A stretch of 64,000 bases of DNA. Origin: Escherichia phage PECP14. Below the pieces are notes generated by a model that was given only the letters and a program-made list of their open reading frames with translations, was not told the origin of the DNA and ran no database searches. The stretch is taken from sequence record OQ870555.1; one strand, 5' to 3'. Below, piece after piece: positions 1 through 43,927 of this stretch (the first letter of the stretch is position 1; each line of letters starts with the position of its first letter). The position numbers and the translations under genes are program-made.

Positions 1-9
1 AAAATTCAT

Positions 10-127
10 TGTCGGATTCGCACATATAAAAAATATTTCCCATCGGATTTGCACACTACCAAAAATTGTCGGATTCGCACATGCACGCTGGCACGTAATC
101 CGTGGGGGCAAATGTCGGATTTGCACA
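10..127. repeat. Four dispersed copies of a 15-bp motif TGTCGGATT(C/T)GCACA (10-24, 41-55, 67-81, 113-127)
   Basis: Read directly: near-identical 15-mers at four positions in non-coding DNA at the window start; candidate protein-binding sites. Confidence 0.8.
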
Positions 128-166
128 AAAGCGCAGGGCAAATAGAAAATGCCCTGCCTGCCGAAA

Positions 167-307
167 TGCGAATGATAATGAGATTGATTCGCATTTGAGA
201 AATTGAACGCGAATGAGAATGATTCGCGTTTAGAAAGCGGAATGAGAATGGTTATCATTTACAGAATTGAATGAGAGTGATTTGCATAATGAGAATGATC
301 TGCATTT
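167..307. repeat. Five tandem imperfect hairpin repeats, unit about GCGAATGAGAATGATTCGC(A/G)TTT
   Basis: Read directly: copies at 167-195, 208-230, 236-259, 268-286, 288-307; each contains the short palindrome GCGAAT...ATTCGC; not CRISPR-like (no uniform spacers). Confidence 0.8.
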
Positions 308-339
308 AGGAGGGGAAGTGAGAAACACTGTTATTTAAG

Positions 340-348
340 TTATCCACA
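340..348 (+). promoter_or_regulatory. DnaA box (TTATCCACA, perfect 9-mer consensus)
   Basis: Exact match to E. coli DnaA box consensus TTATNCACA; part of a 24-bp direct repeat GTTATCCACAGnnTTATnAACAG (339-362 and 400-423). Confidence 0.6.
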
Positions 349-400
349 GGTTTATTAACAGCACGATTTGACTTGACAAAATCCTAGCGATTTTGAGGCG

Positions 401-409
401 TTATCCACA
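401..409 (+). promoter_or_regulatory. DnaA box (TTATCCACA)
   Basis: Exact consensus 9-mer; lies inside the left arm of the 47-bp inverted repeat. Confidence 0.6.
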
Positions 410-447
410 GACTTATCAACAGGTTATTCTACTGTATAAATATACAG
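401..447. repeat. Left arm of a 47-bp inverted repeat (partner 4040-4086)
   Basis: Reverse complement of 4040-4086 equals 401-447 with 2 mismatches; each arm contains a DnaA box plus the LexA-like palindrome. Confidence 0.85.
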
Positions 448-449
448 TA
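430..449. promoter_or_regulatory. LexA (SOS) box-like palindrome TACTGTATAAATATACAGTA
   Basis: CTGT-N8-ACAG with an AT-only centre; 19/20 match to the ideal palindromic LexA operator TACTGTATATATATACAGTA. Function inferred, not demonstrated. Confidence 0.5.
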
Positions 450-561
450 TTCCTGCGTAGTGAATAACTCTAATATAGCTCTAAAACGCTCTATAACGCA
501 TTCTAACGCGTTTATTTTTGGGGGAGGTATTTTAATAAGGGGAAATTTGTTTGCAGGCAGA

Positions 562-590
562 AAAGGCGGGGCCGATAGTTGCGCCCCGTT
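562..590 (-). terminator. Rho-independent terminator-like hairpin (CGGGGC...GCCCCG) downstream of leftward gene 595-834
   Basis: GC-rich stem followed on the minus strand by CCTTTTCT; shares the motif CGCCCCGTTATTA with the hairpin at 1862-1885. Confidence 0.5.
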
Positions 591-3790: not shown

Positions 3791-4039
3791 TTCTTTGTCT
3801 CCCTCGTTAATCGGTGAGTGAATGATATAGATAATTGTTCGCTAGGGGCAAGAAAAAAGAAAAGGTTTTTTATTCCTTGCCTACTGCCTGTTTTTATGAT
3901 AGCCGCGCGTTTTCTATTTCTAGCTCTCTGTAAGCGTACACAAGGCTTTATTATAATAAGGGTAGCAGTGAGAAAACGCCGTGTAGCGCGTTCTAGGCCG
4001 CTTAAATTTGATTGCGGTTGTTACTGCTACCTATTTACC

Positions 4040-4055
4040 CTGTATATTTATACAG
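4040..4055. promoter_or_regulatory. LexA box-like palindrome CTGTATATTTATACAG
   Basis: CTGT-N8-ACAG with AT-only centre; mirror copy of the 430-449 element. Confidence 0.5.
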
Positions 4056-4077
4056 TAGAATAACCTGTATATAAGTC

Positions 4078-4086
4078 TGTGGATAA
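4078..4086 (-). promoter_or_regulatory. DnaA box (TGTGGATAA = TTATCCACA on the minus strand)
   Basis: Exact consensus 9-mer in inverted orientation. Confidence 0.6.
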
Positions 4087-4126
4087 GTCGCCAAAACGTC
4101 GCCTATTGCGTCAAGTTATTTTGTGC

Positions 4127-4135
4127 TGTGGATAA
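4127..4135 (-). promoter_or_regulatory. DnaA box (TGTGGATAA)
   Basis: Exact consensus 9-mer; a fifth 8/9 copy (AGTGGATAA) lies at 4411-4419. Confidence 0.55.
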
Positions 4136-4880
4136 CTTTGTGCATAACCTAAATGATAGTGGTTCTCACTTAGTCGATAGTTTCTTATAGTTATTATTTC
4201 TCTTTAATTTATAAGTATATTATATAATATGAAATAGTTAGTTGGCTAATAGGTTTTTAGAGTATTAATAGTCTGCTAACTGTTTCAGCTGTTACAATCC
4301 ACCAGCGTGATTATCCTCCTAGCGATTGTTAGTATGCTAATGGTCTGATACACGTCCAGACTTATTTGTCAATGAAAAATAACAGCAGAAAATACTTTTT
4401 TGAAAAATCAAGTGGATAACTCATTAAATTTCATTTTTGCTTTTTGTATAAGTTATTAACAGGGTCTAAAACGCTCTGTAAGCGATTCTAAGCGCCTCAA
4501 AGGAAAAGCTAGGCAAGTGCATTGCCTACTAGCCGTTATCGCCACTATGAGGATTTTAGATTTTGTCAAGTAGGGCAAAGCAAATATAAATGAAAAAATT
4601 ACTTGCTAAAATGGTTGTTTTGGTGTTATTCGCGCGCCCATTTCATTAAATTTAGTGCGCCGCTGGACGTTTGCGGGTAGTGGTTTTCTTTACGTTTCTT
4701 TACAAAAATACGCTTGCGCCATTTTCGGGAATAACCTATTATTTATCTCGTAGGACGGCGGGACGGAAACGAAACGCAAGATTACACGGCGGGGAAGTTT
4801 ACCGCCATGCTCTTTAAAAACTAGGGAACATCTTAAAGCCTATCGGCGGTAAACTTATATAATATAAGGAATCGACGATA

Positions 4881-5740: not shown

Positions 5741-6157
5741 ATGTCTAACGTTAAAACCGAAAAAACCGCAAAATTCTCTTGGAACGAAGAAAACACTGAA
5801 AAAGCTGTTTCTATGTATTCTGAAATGGTCGCTAAAAGCGGAATTGAATTTGCTAACAGTGACGGCTTGAAAGAAATCGCCGCCGCCGTTGGTGCTGCTA
5901 GTCCGGTGTCTGTACGTTCTAAATTGACCAGTGCAAAAGCCTACCAGAAAAGCGATAAACCGCGTAAAGTTGGCGGCGGGTCTAGTATCCGTAAAGCTCA
6001 CTATGTGCGCGTCATTGCTAAACATGCCATTGATAGCGGCATTGTAAAAGATGCCGATGATCTGGCAAGTCTGGAAAGTGCAAAACTTGAAACGCTGGAC
6101 GCCGTAGCGCAATTGTTAGGCGTAGCGGAGGAAGTAAAACAGGCCGCAGGTGAATAA
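5741..6157 (+). CDS. hypothetical protein (138 aa)
   Basis: ORF with AATGGAG upstream of the start and a terminator hairpin downstream. Confidence 0.55.
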   Translation: MSNVKTEKTAKFSWNEENTEKAVSMYSEMVAKSGIEFANSDGLKEIAAAVGAASPVSVRSKLTSAKAYQKSDKPRKVGGGSSIRKAHYVRVIAKHAIDSGIVKDADDLASLESAKLETLDAVAQLLGVAEEVKQAAGE

Positions 6158-6551: not shown

Positions 6552-8216
6552 ATGAATATTTCCGCAGAAAAACAAGCTCAAATTCTGAAAATGGCCGCAG
6601 ATTTTAACTTCTACGGTAAGCGTTTACGCGCTACTAAATTGGAAGTTTGCGACGATATTTCAAAAGCTGTTTATGATACGCCGAAACATTCGACCGCAAT
6701 TTGTGACTGGTTAGAAGCAAATAAGCCAGCGAAACCGAAAGCGGCAAAAGCTGAAAAGGCGATTAAAAATGATGATCGCCCCGAAGCGGCGGGAATTGTT
6801 TCTAGTACCGTTGAACAATGGGAAGTTAAATCCGGTCGCCGTTTTATTCTAACGTCGATTCAAAATAATACTTTCCCGCATAAAAACTTTTTAGCAAGTC
6901 TGGAAAAATTCGCTGAATATTGCGGCGCTGAATTGCTGATTAGTAAATTCATTTATAATAAAAATGGATTCCAGAACGGGGAAGGGGCAAACGGTATTAA
7001 ATACGATCCCGCATTTGATAAATATGTTTGTGATAAAAACGTATTTTTAAATAATCGCCGCTTTGCTTTCATGGCTGAAATTAACGTTTTACCAACGGCA
7101 GATTATCCGCTTTCAGGATTCGCAGAAACCGCCACGGCTTTAAATATCGAAGGTCTGGCAATTGGTCACGCTAAAATCACCGCTGAAAGTGTGCCAGCGT
7201 TAAAAGGTGAAGTCGTGCGCCGTATGTATTCAACCGGAACGGCGACACTAAAAAACTATATCCAGCAAAAGGCGGGACAAAAAGCCGAGGCTTTACATAA
7301 TTTCGGCGCTTTGCTGGTAGAGTTTGACGACGACGGAGAATTTTATTGCCGCCAGCTTGAAACAATGGACGAAAGCGGAATGTTCTACGATTTGAACGTG
7401 TGCGCTACCGCTACCGGATGTTATGAAACATCGGGCCATGTTCTAGGCTTGCAATATGGCGATATTCACGCCGAAAAACTAGATGATGATTGCGCCGTCG
7501 CTTCATGGGCTAGTGAAAACAGCTTGCTTGATATTCTTAAACCGAAATATCAATTTATTCATGATGTGCATGATTTTACATCCCGCAATCACCATAACCG
7601 CGCAAGTGGTGTATTCCTTGCTAAACAGTACGCCGCAGGACGTGATAAAGTTATTGATGATTTGATTGATACCGGTCGCGTGTTGGAATCTATGGAGCGT
7701 GATTTCTCTCAAACAATCATTGTGGAATCTAACCATGATTTAGCTCTTTCACGCTGGCTAGATGATCGTAACGCTAACATTAAGGACGATCCCGCAAACG
7801 CGGAACTGTATCACCGTCTAAACGCTGCGATTTACGCCGCTATTGCTGAAAAGGATGATACCTTTAACGTGCTAGATTACGCCTTGCGGAACGTCGCAGG
7901 ATGCGAATTTAACGCCATTTTCTTGACTACTGACCAGTCATTTAAAATCGCTGGCATTGAATGCGGCGTACATGGTCACAACGGCATTAACGGCAGTCGG
8001 GGCAATCCTAAGCAGTTTAAAAAGTTGGGACGCCTTAACACTGGTCATACTCATACGGCTAGCATTTACGGCGGCGTTTATACCGCTGGCGTGGCGGGGT
8101 CGCTTGATATGGGCTACAACGTGGGCGCGTCAAGCTGGACGCAAACGCATTTAATTACCTATGCAAACGGTCAAAGAACATTGATTGACTTTAAGAATGG
8201 TAAATTCTTTGCATAA
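6552..8216 (+). CDS. A1: A1-like pre-early protein, calcineurin-type metallophosphoesterase (554 aa)
   Basis: Phosphoesterase motifs GDIHAE and ESNHDL in the translation; size and position next to A2-like and dmp genes match my recollection of T5 A1 (about 556 aa). Confidence 0.8.
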   Translation: MNISAEKQAQILKMAADFNFYGKRLRATKLEVCDDISKAVYDTPKHSTAICDWLEANKPAKPKAAKAEKAIKNDDRPEAAGIVSSTVEQWEVKSGRRFILTSIQNNTFPHKNFLASLEKFAEYCGAELLISKFIYNKNGFQNGEGANGIKYDPAFDKYVCDKNVFLNNRRFAFMAEINVLPTADYPLSGFAETATALNIEGLAIGHAKITAESVPALKGEVVRRMYSTGTATLKNYIQQKAGQKAEALHNFGALLVEFDDDGEFYCRQLETMDESGMFYDLNVCATATGCYETSGHVLGLQYGDIHAEKLDDDCAVASWASENSLLDILKPKYQFIHDVHDFTSRNHHNRASGVFLAKQYAAGRDKVIDDLIDTGRVLESMERDFSQTIIVESNHDLALSRWLDDRNANIKDDPANAELYHRLNAAIYAAIAEKDDTFNVLDYALRNVAGCEFNAIFLTTDQSFKIAGIECGVHGHNGINGSRGNPKQFKKLGRLNTGHTHTASIYGGVYTAGVAGSLDMGYNVGASSWTQTHLITYANGQRTLIDFKNGKFFA

Positions 8217-9042: not shown

Positions 9043-9777
9043 ATGAATCAAGTCAACATGAATATTACCCGCACTTTCCCGCATATTTCCCGCGTTATGA
9101 TTTGGGATTTAGACGGAACGATTATAAATTCTTTCCATCGTGTAGCGCCTTGCTTTGACGATAACGGGAATTTAGATTTAGTTAAGTATTCCCGCGAAGC
9201 CTGCAAACATGAATTAATTATGCAGGATTCCTTATTACCATTGGTTGAATATATGCGCCAATGTATGAATGATCCCAATACCTTAAACCTTATTTGTACC
9301 GCTCGCTTAATGGGTAAATCTGATTATTATTTCTTGCGTAAACAAAGTCTAAGAGGGCGCGGAAATAGTAATATTCGCGTATTTTCCCGCGATACATTAC
9401 ATAAATACTTTGATGCAAATAAGGTTAGCGAAATATACCACAGTAAAGACGCTGTATATAAATCTTATTACTTTGAACTGTTTAAACAGCTATACCCTAA
9501 CGCTGATTTTACGATGATTGATGATCATAAAGGTGTATTATCGGCGGCGGCAAGTGCTGGATTTAAAACGCTGGACGCTCAAGCCGTTAATGATATCCTA
9601 TCAATCGGGGTAACATTGATCGGTGAAACCTTTATTGATGAATCGTTAGATGATGATAACGATTATCAATTCCTAGCCGAACGTTTAAAAATGTGTTGGG
9701 AAGGTATGACCGAGGAAGAACGCGCGGAATATAGTACCACACCGCAACAATTCATTGATAAATTAAAAGTTGCCTAA
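9043..9777 (+). CDS. dmp: 5'-deoxyribonucleotidase, HAD superfamily (244 aa)
   Basis: HAD motif I (IWDLDGTII) near the N-terminus; length matches my recollection of T5 Dmp. Confidence 0.75.
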   Translation: MNQVNMNITRTFPHISRVMIWDLDGTIINSFHRVAPCFDDNGNLDLVKYSREACKHELIMQDSLLPLVEYMRQCMNDPNTLNLICTARLMGKSDYYFLRKQSLRGRGNSNIRVFSRDTLHKYFDANKVSEIYHSKDAVYKSYYFELFKQLYPNADFTMIDDHKGVLSAAASAGFKTLDAQAVNDILSIGVTLIGETFIDESLDDDNDYQFLAERLKMCWEGMTEEERAEYSTTPQQFIDKLKVA

Positions 9778-9795
9778 CAATTAAAAATAAAATAG

Positions 9796-9830
9796 TCACG
9801 GTGTGTAACGATAACATGCCGTGACTATTA
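9796..9830 (-). terminator. Rho-independent terminator (stem TAGTCACGG / CCGTGACTA, then TTTTATTTTT on minus strand)
   Basis: 9-bp stem plus T-run; closes the leftward small-gene operon and lies just after the dmp stop. Confidence 0.55.
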
Positions 9831-9935
9831 GCTTGCTAAGTACCGGGGCGGTAATGAGACTCATTCTCATCTAGGGAACCTCTGGGCACACCTTCATGTG
9901 TAATCTTAGGAGATTTGGCAAAAGTCAAATTAGCG

Positions 9936-10151
9936 CTATTTACGGACTGACTGCTTGAGAATGGACTGCCATAGAGGGTCAGTCTTAACAAGATTATTGA
10001 TGTACTCAATAGCTTCATCAAATCTCATAAATCCTTCTGGAATTTCCGAAGACTTAGGAAGAACCTGTAGTAACTCCTGAGTGATGCCCATCTTTTCAAG
10101 TTCTTCTTGGGTTATCTCAAACTCCCCGAAAAACTTCCCGAATTCTTTCAT
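9936..10151 (-). CDS. hypothetical small soluble protein (about 71 aa)
   Basis: ATG at 10151 overlaps the TGA of the upstream gene (ATGA) and is preceded by AGGAGAAG; the longer listed ORF (to 10232) is probably an upstream extension. Confidence 0.4.
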   Translation of the reverse strand: MKEFGKFFGEFEITQEELEKMGITQELLQVLPKSSEIPEGFMRFDEAIEYINNLVKTDPLWQSILKQSVRK

Positions 10152-11308: not shown

Positions 11309-13090
11309 ATGAGTTTTTTCGCAGGAAAATTTAGTGATGGTAAAACTGTATTATCTCTAAACGCTGCTAATGGTGGTGATATAAATCAGCACTACTCTCC
11401 AAATACTAATAGTATCTTCCACTCAGATATGCCCTTCGTCCTAGTTGATGGGACTTATGAGGCTGCCCTAGGTGATGCAGGTAATGGGTACTTTGTTACT
11501 CAGATGCCTTGGGATATTATAAACATTAAATCCAATGATCCTGGTAGAGTTATATTAACTGCTATTGAGATAAATGGTACTCATAGGGGTTTCCTTAATG
11601 GTACACAATCTCAGGTTGGCCAGTTCTTATCATTCTTTGAAGACCAACCACGTGCTGGTGCTGAACTGGCTATAACATCTGCTTTTGCAATCGGTGATAG
11701 TTTAGCTCACGGTACTTATATATATAATGGTGGTCTTGGTCATGAGGAATCTATTGCTAGGCAAGGAACTGGTGGTACTTTACTACAATCTTCCGGTTTC
11801 CAGATCTTTAGACCTGGTGGTGTTTCCGCAGGTGAAGCTATTTCCAGAGCCTGGGGATTAATGGGCTTTCCTACTGGTGTTTCTACTGTTCCTATAGATG
11901 GTGGTAACGCCGATTATTGGGAACCTAACTGGCAAGCGCCTGTTGGTTCTGCTGGTAGAGGCCATGATTGGTTTTATGTTTGTAATTCTAATATTCGTGG
12001 CTTCGCAGGTAAGAAAGGTGTACTACCAGATAACGTAAACGTTCTTTACCAATCTCCTGCATATCCAGAAAAAATATATGTTTGTAGAGGTTCTACTTCT
12101 AATATGGCTGCTCAGTCTGCTAGAAAGGTATATGTACAGGACTGGTATAACGTTACGCCAACTAAGGTTATTTGGTATGTGCTAAATCTGCGCTATTCTA
12201 ATGGTAGTATGGGGGTTTCTGGTAATCCATTTACCGGTTCAGATATCCTAATATCTCCATCTAACTTTACTATTAAAGGTGTTAGCCTACCAAATACAGG
12301 CTATAAATTTATTAACCAGAATGCTTTCGGAAACTTAGGCTATCGCCCTGATATGGAGTATGTTGGTAATAACGCCGCGTATACCGGAGTTTTTGGTGAT
12401 AATACTGCACGATGTGAATTTATTGGCTCTAGTAACGGTGGGTTGTGGTCACCCGTTAACTATGGGGGTGCAGCTTCTCAAATTAGCCTATATAAATTTG
12501 GTGTAGGTAAACAATGGTATGTAGATACTAATACCAACTCCATTGGTAATGAACATGGACCTGTCTGGAGTCCTAGTACTGTACCCCTCAGGTTATTCCC
12601 AGGCAACGTTGCAAGTACTTATGTAGGGGATGATATAACTCCATCCTACCCTGGTGCTGGTGACTTCTACACACCTTTGGCCACAGTTTGGTTGGGATTA
12701 CCAAATGCTCACTCTACTGTTATATTAACTACTGAAGTTATTATGGGTAATCTTAATACTGCTGGAATGCCTGTGCGTACTTATGGTGGTAGTGCTTGGC
12801 AGGTACAAGGTAGACGTCAACAAAGTTATACAGCTGGTGATGGTGTATTCCATCAGATTCTTACTCTGCCACCTGGCTATCTAGTACCTTATCACAGTAC
12901 AACTTCCTATAGTTATACACAAACTTGGGCTAGTAGGCCAGATGAGTTTGCTTTCCGTAGGAACGGATATATTTATACTATTAAAAACCTTGGTAATGGC
13001 AACGTTGAGTTGGGTGTTATCATTCACGCTGCAGAAGCGGCAGCTGTTTTCTTGCCAAGACTACGTGTAACAGTTCAACGCCTAACCTAA
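11309..13090 (+). CDS. receptor-binding tail protein (pb5-like, 593 aa)
   Basis: Large Gly/Asn/Thr-rich protein divergent from llp and just upstream of the terminase genes; assigned by synteny. Receptor specificity cannot be read from sequence. Confidence 0.7.
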
Positions 13091-41130: not shown

Positions 41131-42969
41131 TTATTCTAAGTAGGAAAATCCTTCTGCATCTTTTTTGACAGTAATCTTATGGGCTACTGGATGCGTATGC
41201 CCATGAGAAACAATGATAGAATTCAGACTATCTTCCTCATTTAATAATTCAACGAGAGTATCAAGTCCTTTCGTATCAATAAAGCTAATAACTTCGTCAA
41301 GGAACAGAAGATTAATATTAACTTTACTAATAGATGTTAACAGCATTCGAATAGCTAACAGAGTTGCTAGGTTAATTCTACTCTGCTGACCAGTAGAGCA
41401 GTTCTCCATACTGGTGCGGTTTCCATCATTGAAGATTACTACTTGTAATTTAGTTTCATCAAGTTCAAATCCAAGTGCGAACTTACCACCAGTCATAATA
41501 GAAAGATATTTATTAATCAATTCCTCAAATACTTTCACACTATGCTCTAATTTATATCCTACCAGATTTTTCAATGCAGTGATCAGAATATCAAGATCAG
41601 CAACAGCTTCTGATACTCCATCCAGTTTGGACGTTATCTCAGACATTTCTGCCTCAGCTTTCTCAATCTGTTCTAGTTTCGCTTTATATTTTGCATTGGC
41701 TAACTCGACATTTGCATTATGCTCTTTGGCAATTGCAACTTTAGAACGTCCATCTGCGATTTCCTGTTCTAATTGTCGGATTTGCACCTGTAGGATTTGC
41801 ACATTGAGTTCTTCAAAAGAAGCATCACTCATTGAATTTTTGAACTCGTCCCTAGCTGCTATTGCCTTATCCAAAGCATCCTTAGCTCTAGTATATGCAG
41901 TGTACTCGACTTGTTCTTTCTTCAACTGCTCCAATGTAGCTTCAAGAGATTGTTTCTCTTTAAACAGAGGATCATATTCTGTTCTAGCCATATCCATTGC
42001 TTTTTGAGCAGCAGTTGTATCAAGATGCGTACCACAAGTAGGACATTCAGTATTTGAAGCCTCTTGCTTAAACTTCTGATAACGTTTCTTGACTTCTCCC
42101 GCACGTGAGGTAACAATCGTTAAGTCACGCGTAACACTTGAGATCTCTTCAGATTGGTCAGTGGGCGCAGGGAAATTTTTGAAAGGCTCGAAAGATTGTT
42201 CGGCAACTTGTACAGCTTTGTCCAAATTACGGAGTTTAGTAATATTAGCCTCTTGTGACTTGGCTAATGCCGCCTTAATTTTCGATTCAGTAAGTTCTTG
42301 TGCTAATGGTTCTTCATCAAACTCTGGAACTTCAACTGGCTCTTGTAAACTTCCGAGATTGCCTTTTCCGTTGAGGATCTTCGTAATTACGGCCATCTGG
42401 CCTTGCAAGTTACTTAACGTACTTGCCACTTCTTTACGATCAGCCTTAATAGTTTCTGACATCTCTTTATACTGTTCCTGATTGAACAGATTAACAAGAA
42501 AAGCTTTACGTGTCGCATCAGTTGCTTTGAGGAAGTCTAGATTGGAACCTACAGATTGATAGATCAGTTTAGTGAATGTTTGGAAGTCACCACCCATAAT
42601 CTCTTCAATCATCTTATACGTTTGAGTTGCTGTGTGTCCACTGATATCTTCTCCATTCTTAATCAGTGTAACCTTAGCAGTTGATTTAACTACTTTATGC
42701 AATTCATACTCATCTTCATCTTTCGAGAAGTAAGCATGCATATCATACTCTTTCTTCGGAGAACCCCAAGAGAATAGGGCGTCCTTCTTGATACCACGTG
42801 AGTTCTTGTTATAAAACAATTCCTCAATAACAGTAGCAATAGTGGACTTCCCTAGACCGTTTCCTCCGATTAACTGAGTAACTGGATTCTTATCGAAATG
42901 AATTACGATATCCTTACCGTAAGACATAACGTTGCTGAATTTTAGTGTCTTAATTATAATCTTTGACAT
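41131..42969 (-). CDS. D13: SbcC/Rad50-like ATPase (D13-like)
   Basis: Walker A GGNGLGKST, long central coiled coil, C-terminal signature/D-loop region (LFLDEVISFID); start taken at an internal Met, the listed ORF extends to 43044. Confidence 0.8.
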   Translation of the reverse strand: MSKIIIKTLKFSNVMSYGKDIVIHFDKNPVTQLIGGNGLGKSTIATVIEELFYNKNSRGIKKDALFSWGSPKKEYDMHAYFSKDEDEYELHKVVKSTAKVTLIKNGEDISGHTATQTYKMIEEIMGGDFQTFTKLIYQSVGSNLDFLKATDATRKAFLVNLFNQEQYKEMSETIKADRKEVASTLSNLQGQMAVITKILNGKGNLGSLQEPVEVPEFDEEPLAQELTESKIKAALAKSQEANITKLRNLDKAVQVAEQSFEPFKNFPAPTDQSEEISSVTRDLTIVTSRAGEVKKRYQKFKQEASNTECPTCGTHLDTTAAQKAMDMARTEYDPLFKEKQSLEATLEQLKKEQVEYTAYTRAKDALDKAIAARDEFKNSMSDASFEELNVQILQVQIRQLEQEIADGRSKVAIAKEHNANVELANAKYKAKLEQIEKAEAEMSEITSKLDGVSEAVADLDILITALKNLVGYKLEHSVKVFEELINKYLSIMTGGKFALGFELDETKLQVVIFNDGNRTSMENCSTGQQSRINLATLLAIRMLLTSISKVNINLLFLDEVISFIDTKGLDTLVELLNEEDSLNSIIVSHGHTHPVAHKITVKKDAEGFSYLE

Positions 42970-43927
42970 ATTTAGCAGCTCTAGCCAAGATTCTATCAAT
43001 GTCGTCTTGAGACAGCTTTTCAACTTCACGGAAGTAAAGCTCAAGCTCGCCTAACATATCAAGATCAACAAGATTTAACTTAGCATCTTTAGTAACTCGA
43101 TGGTTAATCTTTTTATCTAAGAGATCGGAATCTTTAATAGACTTTAACTGAACGACGTCACCAGTGACTTCATAAATTACACGGTCATAGTCACTAGGCT
43201 CCATTTCCTCACCAACTCCGATTGTTTTACGAATCAGTTGTGGTAAGTCACCAAGTTCAATCCATTCTACTTTTAATGTGTCGGTATCAATGATAAAACA
43301 ACCATTTGTACCTTTTGTTCGTTCTCTATGGAACGATGTAGTTAATGGAGATCCTGGATAAAGAAGTCTAGTAGAACCAACAGTTTGACTATTAGTATAA
43401 GAATGTAAATCGCCAGCAATTACAGTGTCATAACAGTTATACCTCGTTAGATCAATCTCTGGTTTTACATGTGGAGGGATTTCACCACGAACATGCGTGA
43501 AACATAGTTTTGATTCAGATGGTTTCCACTTTGGTTTGTGGATTTCATCATAAGGGATAATATCAAATTCAGGAGAACGATATGGTTTAGTAATGACTTC
43601 CCAATTTCCGTTTGTTACTTTATTAATAACTCCTGCATAATGATACAGACATGAAATAGTTTTAGTTAACATTTCATGGTTCCCAGTGAAGATCTTGCCT
43701 GAATGGTCAAGTCTTGACATGAACTGTTCAAGAAGTTCTATTTCTTCCGACGATGGGTCGGCAACATCAAGAATATCACCACCAGCAATATGCAGATCAC
43801 AGTTATGATTATGGAATATGTCATTTAACCGTTCTCCTAGCATCAGGAAGCGACGCTTCTGCCATTCCTTTGGAACTTTATCTTGTCCTAATTTGATATG
43901 ATGATCAGCACTAAATAGTATTCTCAT
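42950..43927 (-). CDS. D12: SbcD/Mre11-like metallophosphoesterase nuclease (D12-like, 325 aa)
   Basis: Phosphoesterase motifs ADHH, GDILD, GNHE and GDLH; paired with the Rad50-like ATPase. Confidence 0.8.
   Translation of the reverse strand: MRILFSADHHIKLGQDKVPKEWQKRRFLMLGERLNDIFHNHNCDLHIAGGDILDVADPSSEEIELLEQFMSRLDHSGKIFTGNHEMLTKTISCLYHYAGVINKVTNGNWEVITKPYRSPEFDIIPYDEIHKPKWKPSESKLCFTHVRGEIPPHVKPEIDLTRYNCYDTVIAGDLHSYTNSQTVGSTRLLYPGSPLTTSFHRERTKGTNGCFIIDTDTLKVEWIELGDLPQLIRKTIGVGEEMEPSDYDRVIYEVTGDVVQLKSIKDSDLLDKKINHRVTKDAKLNLVDLDMLGELELYFREVEKLSQDDIDRILARAAKYVKDYN

Follow-up and report, generated by a model that had tools for sequence, protein, structure and literature searches.

The 64,000-nucleotide stretch of Escherichia phage PECP14 DNA considered here (sequence record OQ870555.1; hereafter "the window") opens, between positions 10 and 307, with two families of short repeats, one consisting of co-oriented direct repeats (family A) and the other of tandem palindromic units (family B). 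Alignment identifies the window as DNA of a T5-like (Epseptimavirus-type) phage, reverse-complemented with respect to the T5 record NC_005859, and positions 10–307 as the inner part of the T5-type locus called "Repeat Region 3" or injection stop signal (iss). The repeats as such were already known; the new and testable lead is that family B reads as an array of boxes for the host iron regulator Fur. The homology with the T5 iss, the anatomy, conservation and common orientation of the repeats and the sequence identity of the family B units with the Fur box are the observations on which we base the view, which we consider probable, that both families are arrays of protein-binding sites rather than structural hairpins and belong to a zone of the iss locus that would include Fur loading on family B.

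The window and the T5 injection stop locus

The first 600 bases of the window match 446 phage records, nearly all of them from T5-like phages that infect Salmonella or Escherichia, with identities of up to 95.8%. The comparison with the T5 injection stop, proposed as a check by the first-pass annotation made from the letters of the window, reveals a direct homologue: window positions 1–571 align with T5 9878–9287 (74% identity over 571 bp) and the aligned T5 stretch falls within the annotated "injection stop signal (iss)", a non-coding feature at T5 9140–10149. The genetic context is that of the T5 locus, small open reading frames (ORFs) being followed by A2 (5741–6157), A1 (6552–8216) and dmp (9043–9777), pre-early genes of the terminal repeat, and then by llp and pb5, with the block located in non-coding DNA at the repeat end distal to dmp and downstream of the second pre-early operon. 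The best explanation is that the block is a conserved, non-coding segment ~340–650 bp inside one end of a ~10.2-kb direct terminal repeat, the start of the window lying ~340 bp inside this repeat, as measured from the nick motif to the repeat end in relatives.

The earlier statement that the repeats are not coding is consistent with the T5 annotation; many GenBank records of relatives carry "hypothetical protein" calls over the homologous block. PHROGs and Pfam return only families of unknown function for the small ORFs adjoining the array, and the Rfam search of the repeat region yielded no family match, only chance hits below threshold. That the arrays are not CRISPR-like is likewise borne out by their irregular spacing (31, 26 and 46 bp in family A; 35, 29, 29 and 18 bp, start to start, in family B) and by the conservation of the spacers between phages.

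According to Davison, Repeat Region 3 comprises nine DRD, copies of DRC, two 66-bp DRE repeats and several palindromes (including palE, G, H, I and J), as well as an IRD′-spacer-IRC′ element and DnaA boxes in pairs separated by 3 bp; its function is given as unknown. Family A (TGTCGGATTYGCACA) corresponds to the published DRD repeat and family B to the published DRC/DRE/palindrome array, so that both arrays are real, ordinary for the T5-like family and already described as sequence. Indeed, T5 (Heusterspreute 1987; Wang 2005; Davison 2015, 2020) and the window display the same order of elements, namely DRD, nick, palindromic DRC/DRE units, an IRC′-spacer-IRD′ element with paired DnaA boxes and its inverted partner in mid-repeat, and the DRD spacings of the two phages are identical. 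On the other hand, the B units differ from those of T5 in sequence and number (five in the window), the nick hairpin has a longer loop in the window, and the lineage of the window, unlike T5, has a Fur-like palindrome near the other end of the repeat.

Family B units and the Fur box

The element repeated in family B is the core AATGAGAATGAT, found with at most one mismatch at positions 165, 177, 212, 241, 270 and 288, which define five units; a seventh copy lies at 849, and the total of 8 matches in the window compares with 0.81 expected, none of 100 shuffles reaching 8. The five tandem hairpins initially noticed thus survive as five units around this core, but the 19-mer quoted for them, GCGAATGAGAATGATTCGC, has a single occurrence in the window (209–227). 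The length of the array varies among phages, the distance between the nick and IRC′ ranging from 200 to 335 bp.

A position matrix was built from the 19-mers of 23 distinct phage arrays, chosen by self-symmetry alone, and its consensus, AATGATAATCATTATCATT, contains positions 4–19 of the 19-bp E. coli Fur box consensus (GATAATGATAATCATTATC) as well as the motif of the 7-1-7 model (TGATAATnATTATCA) (PMC11353095). When E. coli K-12 is scanned with this phage-only matrix between 605 and 630 kb, the top 6 matches all fall in the fepB|entC, fepD|entS and fepA|fes intergenic regions, which account for 726 of the 25,001 bp scanned, and only one in 1000 column-permuted palindromic matrices does as well. 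These intergenic regions are classical Fur-controlled promoter regions. Between 145 and 190 kb the best match is the fhuA promoter (TATAATAATCATTCTCGTT), a result obtained also with 3.9% of the permuted matrices. The phage units score 16–20 bits, to be compared with 13–21 bits for the top matches in the four host promoter regions.

Direct comparison with the Fur consensus points in the same direction. The units agree with it at 13–15 of the 19 positions, the copy at 852 at 17; all 7 window matches of at least 15/19 lie within the first 10 kb, with 0.37 expected per 64 kb. Six matches of this quality are present in the left terminal repeat of T5, the two in dmp recurring in the right-repeat copy, and none was found in the ~61 kb of unique T5 sequence scanned. 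In relatives, each array contains 3–7 Fur-like scoring boxes. By sequence, the family B units are Fur binding sites, that is to say candidate operators. No link between Fur boxes and T5-like phages was met in the literature searched, and the searched literature on the mechanism of the iss mentions neither Fur nor LexA, an earlier mention in Heusterspreute 1987 or Wang 2005 being possible in both cases.

Individually, unit 1 (164–196), with 10-bp arms AAATGCGAAT/ATTCGCATTT, is Fur-box-like with 18.1 bits at 177 and matches the Fur consensus at 14/19 positions at 174; unit 2 (207–230), which carries the 19-mer given above, is Fur-box-like with 18.9 bits at 212; unit 3 (238–259; AATGAGAATGGTTATCATT), with 20.0 bits, is the best Fur-like box of the window; unit 4 (268–286; AATGAGAGTGATTTGCA) is degenerate and scores 8.7 bits; and unit 5 (286–306; AATGAGAATGATCTGCATT) scores 16.0 bits. 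Like the E. coli Fur boxes of fhuA, fepA-fes, fepD-entS and fepB-entC, the phage unit consensus contains the Fur-box core, but the phage boxes stand in tandem in DNA free of genes near a repeat end instead of lying over a promoter, and their half-site often has G for T (TGAGAAT). In fact, the stretch 164–306 has no downstream gene and only weak promoter-like matches, whereas a Fur operator overlaps the −35/−10 elements of an iron-repressed promoter.

The propensity of the units to fold is uneven. As single-stranded DNA, unit 1 folds with −8.2 kcal/mol (z −4.2), unit 2 with −9.0 (z −5.0) and unit 3 with −2.5 (z −3.3), whereas units 4 and 5 fold no better than shuffles, unit 4 forming no hairpin and unit 5 no significant one; the premise that each unit forms a hairpin thus applies to units 1 and 2, weakly to unit 3, and fails for the remaining two. 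Moreover, mismatches are frequent in the stems of orthologues of the last unit, and a compensatory pair is found in one lineage only. Mismatched orthologous stems and unfolded units 4 and 5 fit a dyad-symmetric protein site better than a hairpin. The first-pass suggestion of multimeric protein-binding sites or packaging/injection pause signals thus led to the correct locus, the direct homologue of the T5 iss, but its hairpin part is weak.

The same data bear on the idea that the palindromes, as hairpins or cruciforms or in combination with the nick, constitute a structural obstacle that stalls the DNA in the tail or portal without the help of sequence-specific proteins. Units 1 and 2 and the GC-rich palindrome at the nick (see below) do fold significantly better than shuffles, the predicted nick lies between the two arrays, one lineage has a compensatory stem change (ACGAAT/ATTCGT), and T5 ejection in vitro reportedly proceeds stepwise. 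Nevertheless, the failure of units 4 and 5 to fold and the weakness of unit 3, the mismatch (GCAAAT/ATTCGC) in the stem form most often seen for the last unit and the persistence of the Fur-like consensus in arrays whose unit number varies make an obstacle of this kind very improbable, the more so as ejection in vitro with FhuA proteoliposomes is complete (Davison).

DRD repeats, nick and the ends of the terminal repeat

Family A consists, in the window, of three exact copies of TGTCGGATTYGCACA at 10–24 and 67–81 (both TGTCGGATTCGCACA) and at 113–127 (TGTCGGATTTGCACA), and of a copy with a degenerate 5′ end and 2 mismatches at 41–55 (CATCGGATTTGCACA), all on the + strand. With up to 3 mismatches, 7 matches are found in the window against 2.25 expected, and 0/100 shuffles reach 7. 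The four copies initially counted are thus present, but they are not the entire array, which is cut by the window start so that only the inner 4 of ~9 copies are visible; in relatives, two further copies belong to the terminal repeat, and at least three more are located past its end. In T5, nine DRD copies are found between 9752 and 10491, all on the T5 minus strand, which corresponds to the + strand of the window, and one more at 12153.

Throughout 43 T5-like stretches from IMG/VR, containing 3–11 copies each (5–11 in the complete stretches of relatives), all DRD copies of a stretch lie on one strand and occupy fixed offsets from the nick motif, namely −18, −64, −90, −121, −192/−202, −227, −570, −605 and −742. 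The window copies starting at 10, 41, 67 and 113 fill slots −121, −90, −64 and −18, respectively, the sequence in slot −18 being identical in 36/36 occurrences tallied there. To the published description the present analysis adds that DRD are strictly co-oriented and keep a fixed register with respect to both nick and repeat end. The DRD logo consists of a nearly invariant, asymmetric 13-bp core (TCGGATTYGCACA) with flanks of ~0 bits and a short A-tract 4–6 bp upstream of the core. Since conservation among close relatives is block-wide, footprinting among them is uninformative and diverged relatives were used instead; in L061, L076 and L041 the DRD core is kept while spacers and copy positions have changed, as one would expect if DRD were discrete protein sites.

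The DRD sequence was not found in any of the literature searched, in which no function is assigned to either DRD or the palindromic units. None of the host transcription-factor motifs CRP, DeoR, FadR, marbox, sigma-54 and PhoB is known to fit DRD. The A2 protein was considered as a candidate binder; its predicted structure is all-helical (mean pLDDT 84.3) with no significant PDB match (best E-value 1.0), and it could not be linked to either motif.

The T5 record (NC_005859) marks a major single-strand interruption at 9748/9749 (the 7.9%/99.5% nick). The four annotated T5 nicks share RGCGCRGG and, ~35 nt to the 5′ side, CAYNYGTAAY; this extended motif, longer than the annotated consensus 5′-NPu|GCGCN, is an addition of the present analysis. 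The bipartite pattern GTAAY-N28–32-RGCGCRGG has only two matches in the 64-kb window, at 95–137 and 42131–42171, both on the + strand. The former is homologous to the T5 9748/9749 site and has the 5′-Pu|GCGC motif conserved at 130|131, so that an interruption is predicted between positions 130 and 131, in the interval separating families A and B; from the latter, a nick is predicted at ~42165. The predicted nick at 130|131 is directly followed on its 3′ side by a GC-rich palindrome (GCAGGGCA-N9-TGCCCTGC; 133–157) with arms that are conserved across phages and a loop whose length ranges between 2 and 11 nt. The possibility that DRD is itself the determinant of nicking was rejected because the T5 nicks at 18.5% and 32.6% have no DRD nearby, while all four nicks share the bipartite motif.

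Two abutting DRD-like 15-mers, TGTCGGATTTGCACC and TGTAGGATTTGCACA, occur also at 41774–41803 (+), inside the D13/SbcC-like ORF 41131–43044 (−), antisense to the codons for VQILQVQIRQ. The abutting pair is kept inside the D13 gene of T5 at 78935–78964, ~360 nt 5′ of the 64.8% nick and on the nicked strand. Selection of this pair as a DNA site is not supported: its synonymous diversity is only in the 9th percentile of the gene, which is not significant, the pair itself is variable in 9 of 28 distinct genes, and D13 genes at 46% identity do not have it.

The position of the repeat end relative to DRD can be deduced from several contig ends located 469–471 bp from the nick motif, the distance found for the T5 repeat end (10219 − 9748 = 471); the physical end accordingly falls between two DRD clusters, i.e., between offsets −227 and −570. 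A ~200-bp pyrimidine-rich and strongly strand-asymmetric tract, conserved in relatives (bastian L001 1–535; T5 9980–10150), separates the inner DRD cluster from the repeat end, upstream of the window.

At the other end, the terminal repeat of this phage is placed by homology at ~9888. Some 17–35 bp inside this end lies a Fur-like palindrome (AATGAGACTCATTCTCATC; 9853–9871; 17.9 bits) whose central part, ATGAGACTCATTCTCAT at 9854–9870, belongs to the same motif family as family B. The related palindrome that had been reported here therefore exists, 3 nt away from the 9857–9873 given for it, and is as close to the repeat boundary as had been suggested. A Fur-like palindrome is found 17–35 bp from the physical left end in L152, L154, L155, L126 and L134, that is in 5 of the 13 contig ends of relatives examined; T5 and some other phages have a different allele (GGTTAGCAGACTAAGTATTTTC) at its place. 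This putative Fur box beside the second repeat end is likewise added here.

These findings must be weighed also in terms of packaging. DRD could be the recognition sites of the small terminase subunit, marking both the cut that produces the terminal-repeat end and the point where packaging begins, with the Fur-like boxes and a nearby IHF core (described below) serving as host bending sites. An end-recognition or packaging role for the block is a serious rival, to which we attach a modest probability. Judging from contig ends and T5, DRD copies flank the cut, at 99–271 bp outside and 244–453 bp inside it, and their common orientation is expected for a directional translocase; the Fur-like palindromes near the other end of the repeat in relatives would suit the same role. 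IHF acts as a bending factor at lambda cosB, and at lambda cosB, with its R sites and IHF, as well as at SPP1 pacL/pacR, short repeats cluster by a DNA end with host-factor sites nearby, as do DRD and the putative host-factor sites in the relatives; DRD, however, are present on both sides of one end only and spread over ~750 bp. We know of no T5 terminase binding site. Furthermore, since the left end of T5 enters the cell first (Davison), and assuming that what is first out was last in, the right end with its copy of the array was probably packaged first. Against this role are the lack of a DRD copy at the other boundary of the terminal repeat, the missing palindrome near the left end of T5, the poor fit of the extra DRD ~2.4–3.4 kb away (inside a gene in T5) and of the D13 pair, and the fact that no T5 packaging or cos site is defined in the literature searched. 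The repeat end flanked by DRD clusters in relatives lies ~340 bp upstream of the window.

Neighbouring sites and the proposed protein-binding zone

Beyond family B follows the 134-bp IRC′-spacer-IRD′ element (316–447), an inverted repeat of 4040–4171 with 79% identity. It contains two DnaA boxes (TTATCCACA; 340–348 and 401–409), each with a variant box 3 bp further on (352–360 and 413–421), and an IHF core (TATCAACAGGTTA; 414–426). At 430–449 there is an SOS (LexA) box-like palindrome (TACTGTATAAATATACAGTA) with 1 mismatch to the ideal 20-mer TACTGTATATATATACAGTA, which conforms to CTGT-N8-ACAG with an AT-rich spacer, a sequence match of which 0 are expected by chance; a near-perfect LexA box is present in each copy of the inverted repeat, at 430–449 and 4038–4057.

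The composition and order of these elements call to mind P1 oriR, F ori2 and pSC101, with which the window shares DnaA boxes, an IHF site, an AT-rich block and co-oriented direct repeats, and an iteron-type origin or initiator-loading site, with DRD as iterons and the B array as the AT-rich block, might be envisaged. The paired arrangement of the DnaA boxes has been compared with oriC (Davison), DRD have the same orientation as the TTATCCACA boxes, and the nine 3′ bases of the commoner DRD variant, ATTTGCACA, fit the relaxed DnaA box TTWTNCACA at 8/9 positions. Yet DnaA binding does not explain the invariant 5′ half of DRD (TCGGA), the spacing of the repeats is irregular, and no initiator gene was identified beside the array, the neighbouring ORFs having no replication-initiator match, whereas an iteron origin has an adjacent initiator gene and initiates at the site. 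Also considering that the T5 origins were mapped elsewhere, near the genome middle, and that the first-step DNA does not contain the replication genes (Davison), we regard an origin as highly unlikely.

A second group of observations concerns transcription. The LexA-like box overlaps a promoter-like TTATCA-N16-TATAAA within 413–449, followed by a terminator-like hairpin at 495–512, and a short LexA-controlled transcript from the 413–512 region is conceivable. Farther on, two overlapping Fur-like boxes (849–873; 17/19 to the Fur consensus at 852, with an exact TGAKAATNATTMTCA match at 851–865) lie just upstream of the minus-strand ORF 595–834, between −35-like and −10-like hexamers. This ORF, which encodes 79 amino acids of the function-unknown phrog_12351 and for which no matching DNA exists in T5, could represent a pre-early gene under Fur control, the boxes perhaps overlapping its promoter. 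A sub-threshold Rfam match to PrrF, a Fur-regulated small RNA of Pseudomonas, at 839–993 (21 bits, the gathering score being 90; E-value 0.69) is almost certainly due to chance. Finally, a Fur-like sequence (16/19) inside the dmp coding region at 9652–9670, conserved in T5 at 228–252, could be no more than a consequence of the DDDNDY peptide encoded there.

The sites for Fur, LexA, DnaA and IHF could be roadblocks or operators that shield the end of the pre-early operon or govern short transcripts, among them possibly a LexA-controlled small RNA and a Fur-controlled small ORF. Besides the LexA-like box and the boxes at 849–873, such a transcriptional function would agree with the location of the block directly downstream of the minus-strand pre-early operon terminator, homologous to the T5 terminator at 9275–9296, and with the weak promoter-like matches inside the B array. 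These matches reach at most 9 of 12 positions, however, and their number (8, against a shuffle mean of 4.1 with sd 2.1) is ~1.9 sd above that mean; the B array has no gene downstream, and the nine co-oriented DRD straddling the repeat end would be left unexplained. A transcriptional control module of this kind appears rather improbable.

The reading that we prefer, that of protein-binding arrays, accounts for the two families as follows. DRD, located on the nicked strand on both sides of the repeat end, would be bound by a sequence-specific protein, probably phage-encoded, whereas the tandem dyad-symmetric candidate operators of family B, with 3–7 boxes per phage, would be loaded with host Fur-Fe2+ dimers; together with the DnaA, IHF and LexA sites they would form a ~700-bp zone on which a protein-DNA complex might assemble. 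In the left repeat copy this zone would lie on the DNA found across the envelope during the pause in first-step transfer, and in the right copy the same block would be the outermost 0.5–1 kb and probably the first DNA packaged. Occupancy of these sites by proteins, like any part played by them in the halting or resumption of transfer, is an inference from the observations presented above. Davison's estimate from shear puts the T5 stop at 9618, which falls within the stretch mapped here as the T5 B array (~9530–9735). In Davison's proposal, membrane-bound DnaA binds the DnaA boxes and A1/A2 cut the DNA, the other repeats being left unexplained, and a 2026 preprint describes the iss only as repeat-rich.

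Several points weigh against a protein-binding zone at the transfer pause. Among close relatives the entire block is conserved, the DRD columns being barely more so (0.886 vs 0.849), and the family B array, unlike classical Fur boxes, does not lie over the promoter of a downstream gene. T5 degrades the host DNA early (Davison), so that titrating Fur off host genes would have no obvious benefit. Fur is inactive as a repressor in iron-starved cells (PMC11353095). It is in such cells that the receptor FhuA, and in some relatives FepA, is most abundant. The transfer stop itself has been located, by shear experiments, only to within a few hundred bp (Davison). Furthermore, while relatives with A1 66–68% identical keep a DRD variant and 3–6 clustered Fur-like boxes, phages with A1 ≤49% identical have neither DRD nor Fur-like clusters; if two-step transfer is used by the latter, these sequences are not required for it.

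Other co-oriented arrays are present in phages with distant A1 (42–49% identity), at ~14040–14215 in L165 and L166 and at ~5278–5530 in L160, consisting of TGCACCACGAAGGTC repeated 5–8 times and of ATATTAGC repeated ~20 times with an 8-bp period; these may be analogous elements.

The stop of T5 DNA entry at 8% of the genome and its later resumption have been a question since the 1960s. Three observations, namely the Fur-operator-like array beside LexA, IHF and DnaA sites, the co-oriented DRD straddling nick and repeat end, and the Fur-like box at the other end, turn a catalogue of repeats into specific experiments that can be carried out with existing host mutants and phage editing. Should none of these sites matter, the search would narrow to virion or envelope factors. 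A bolder proposal, to which we give little credence at present, is that Fur, with LexA, DnaA and IHF, acts on the last few hundred bp of the first-step DNA as part of a stop/restart switch or, in a variant of the same idea, that Fur is a host cofactor in the formation of the repeat ends. If this were true, the two-step DNA transfer of T5-like phages would be sensitive to the iron and SOS state of the host.

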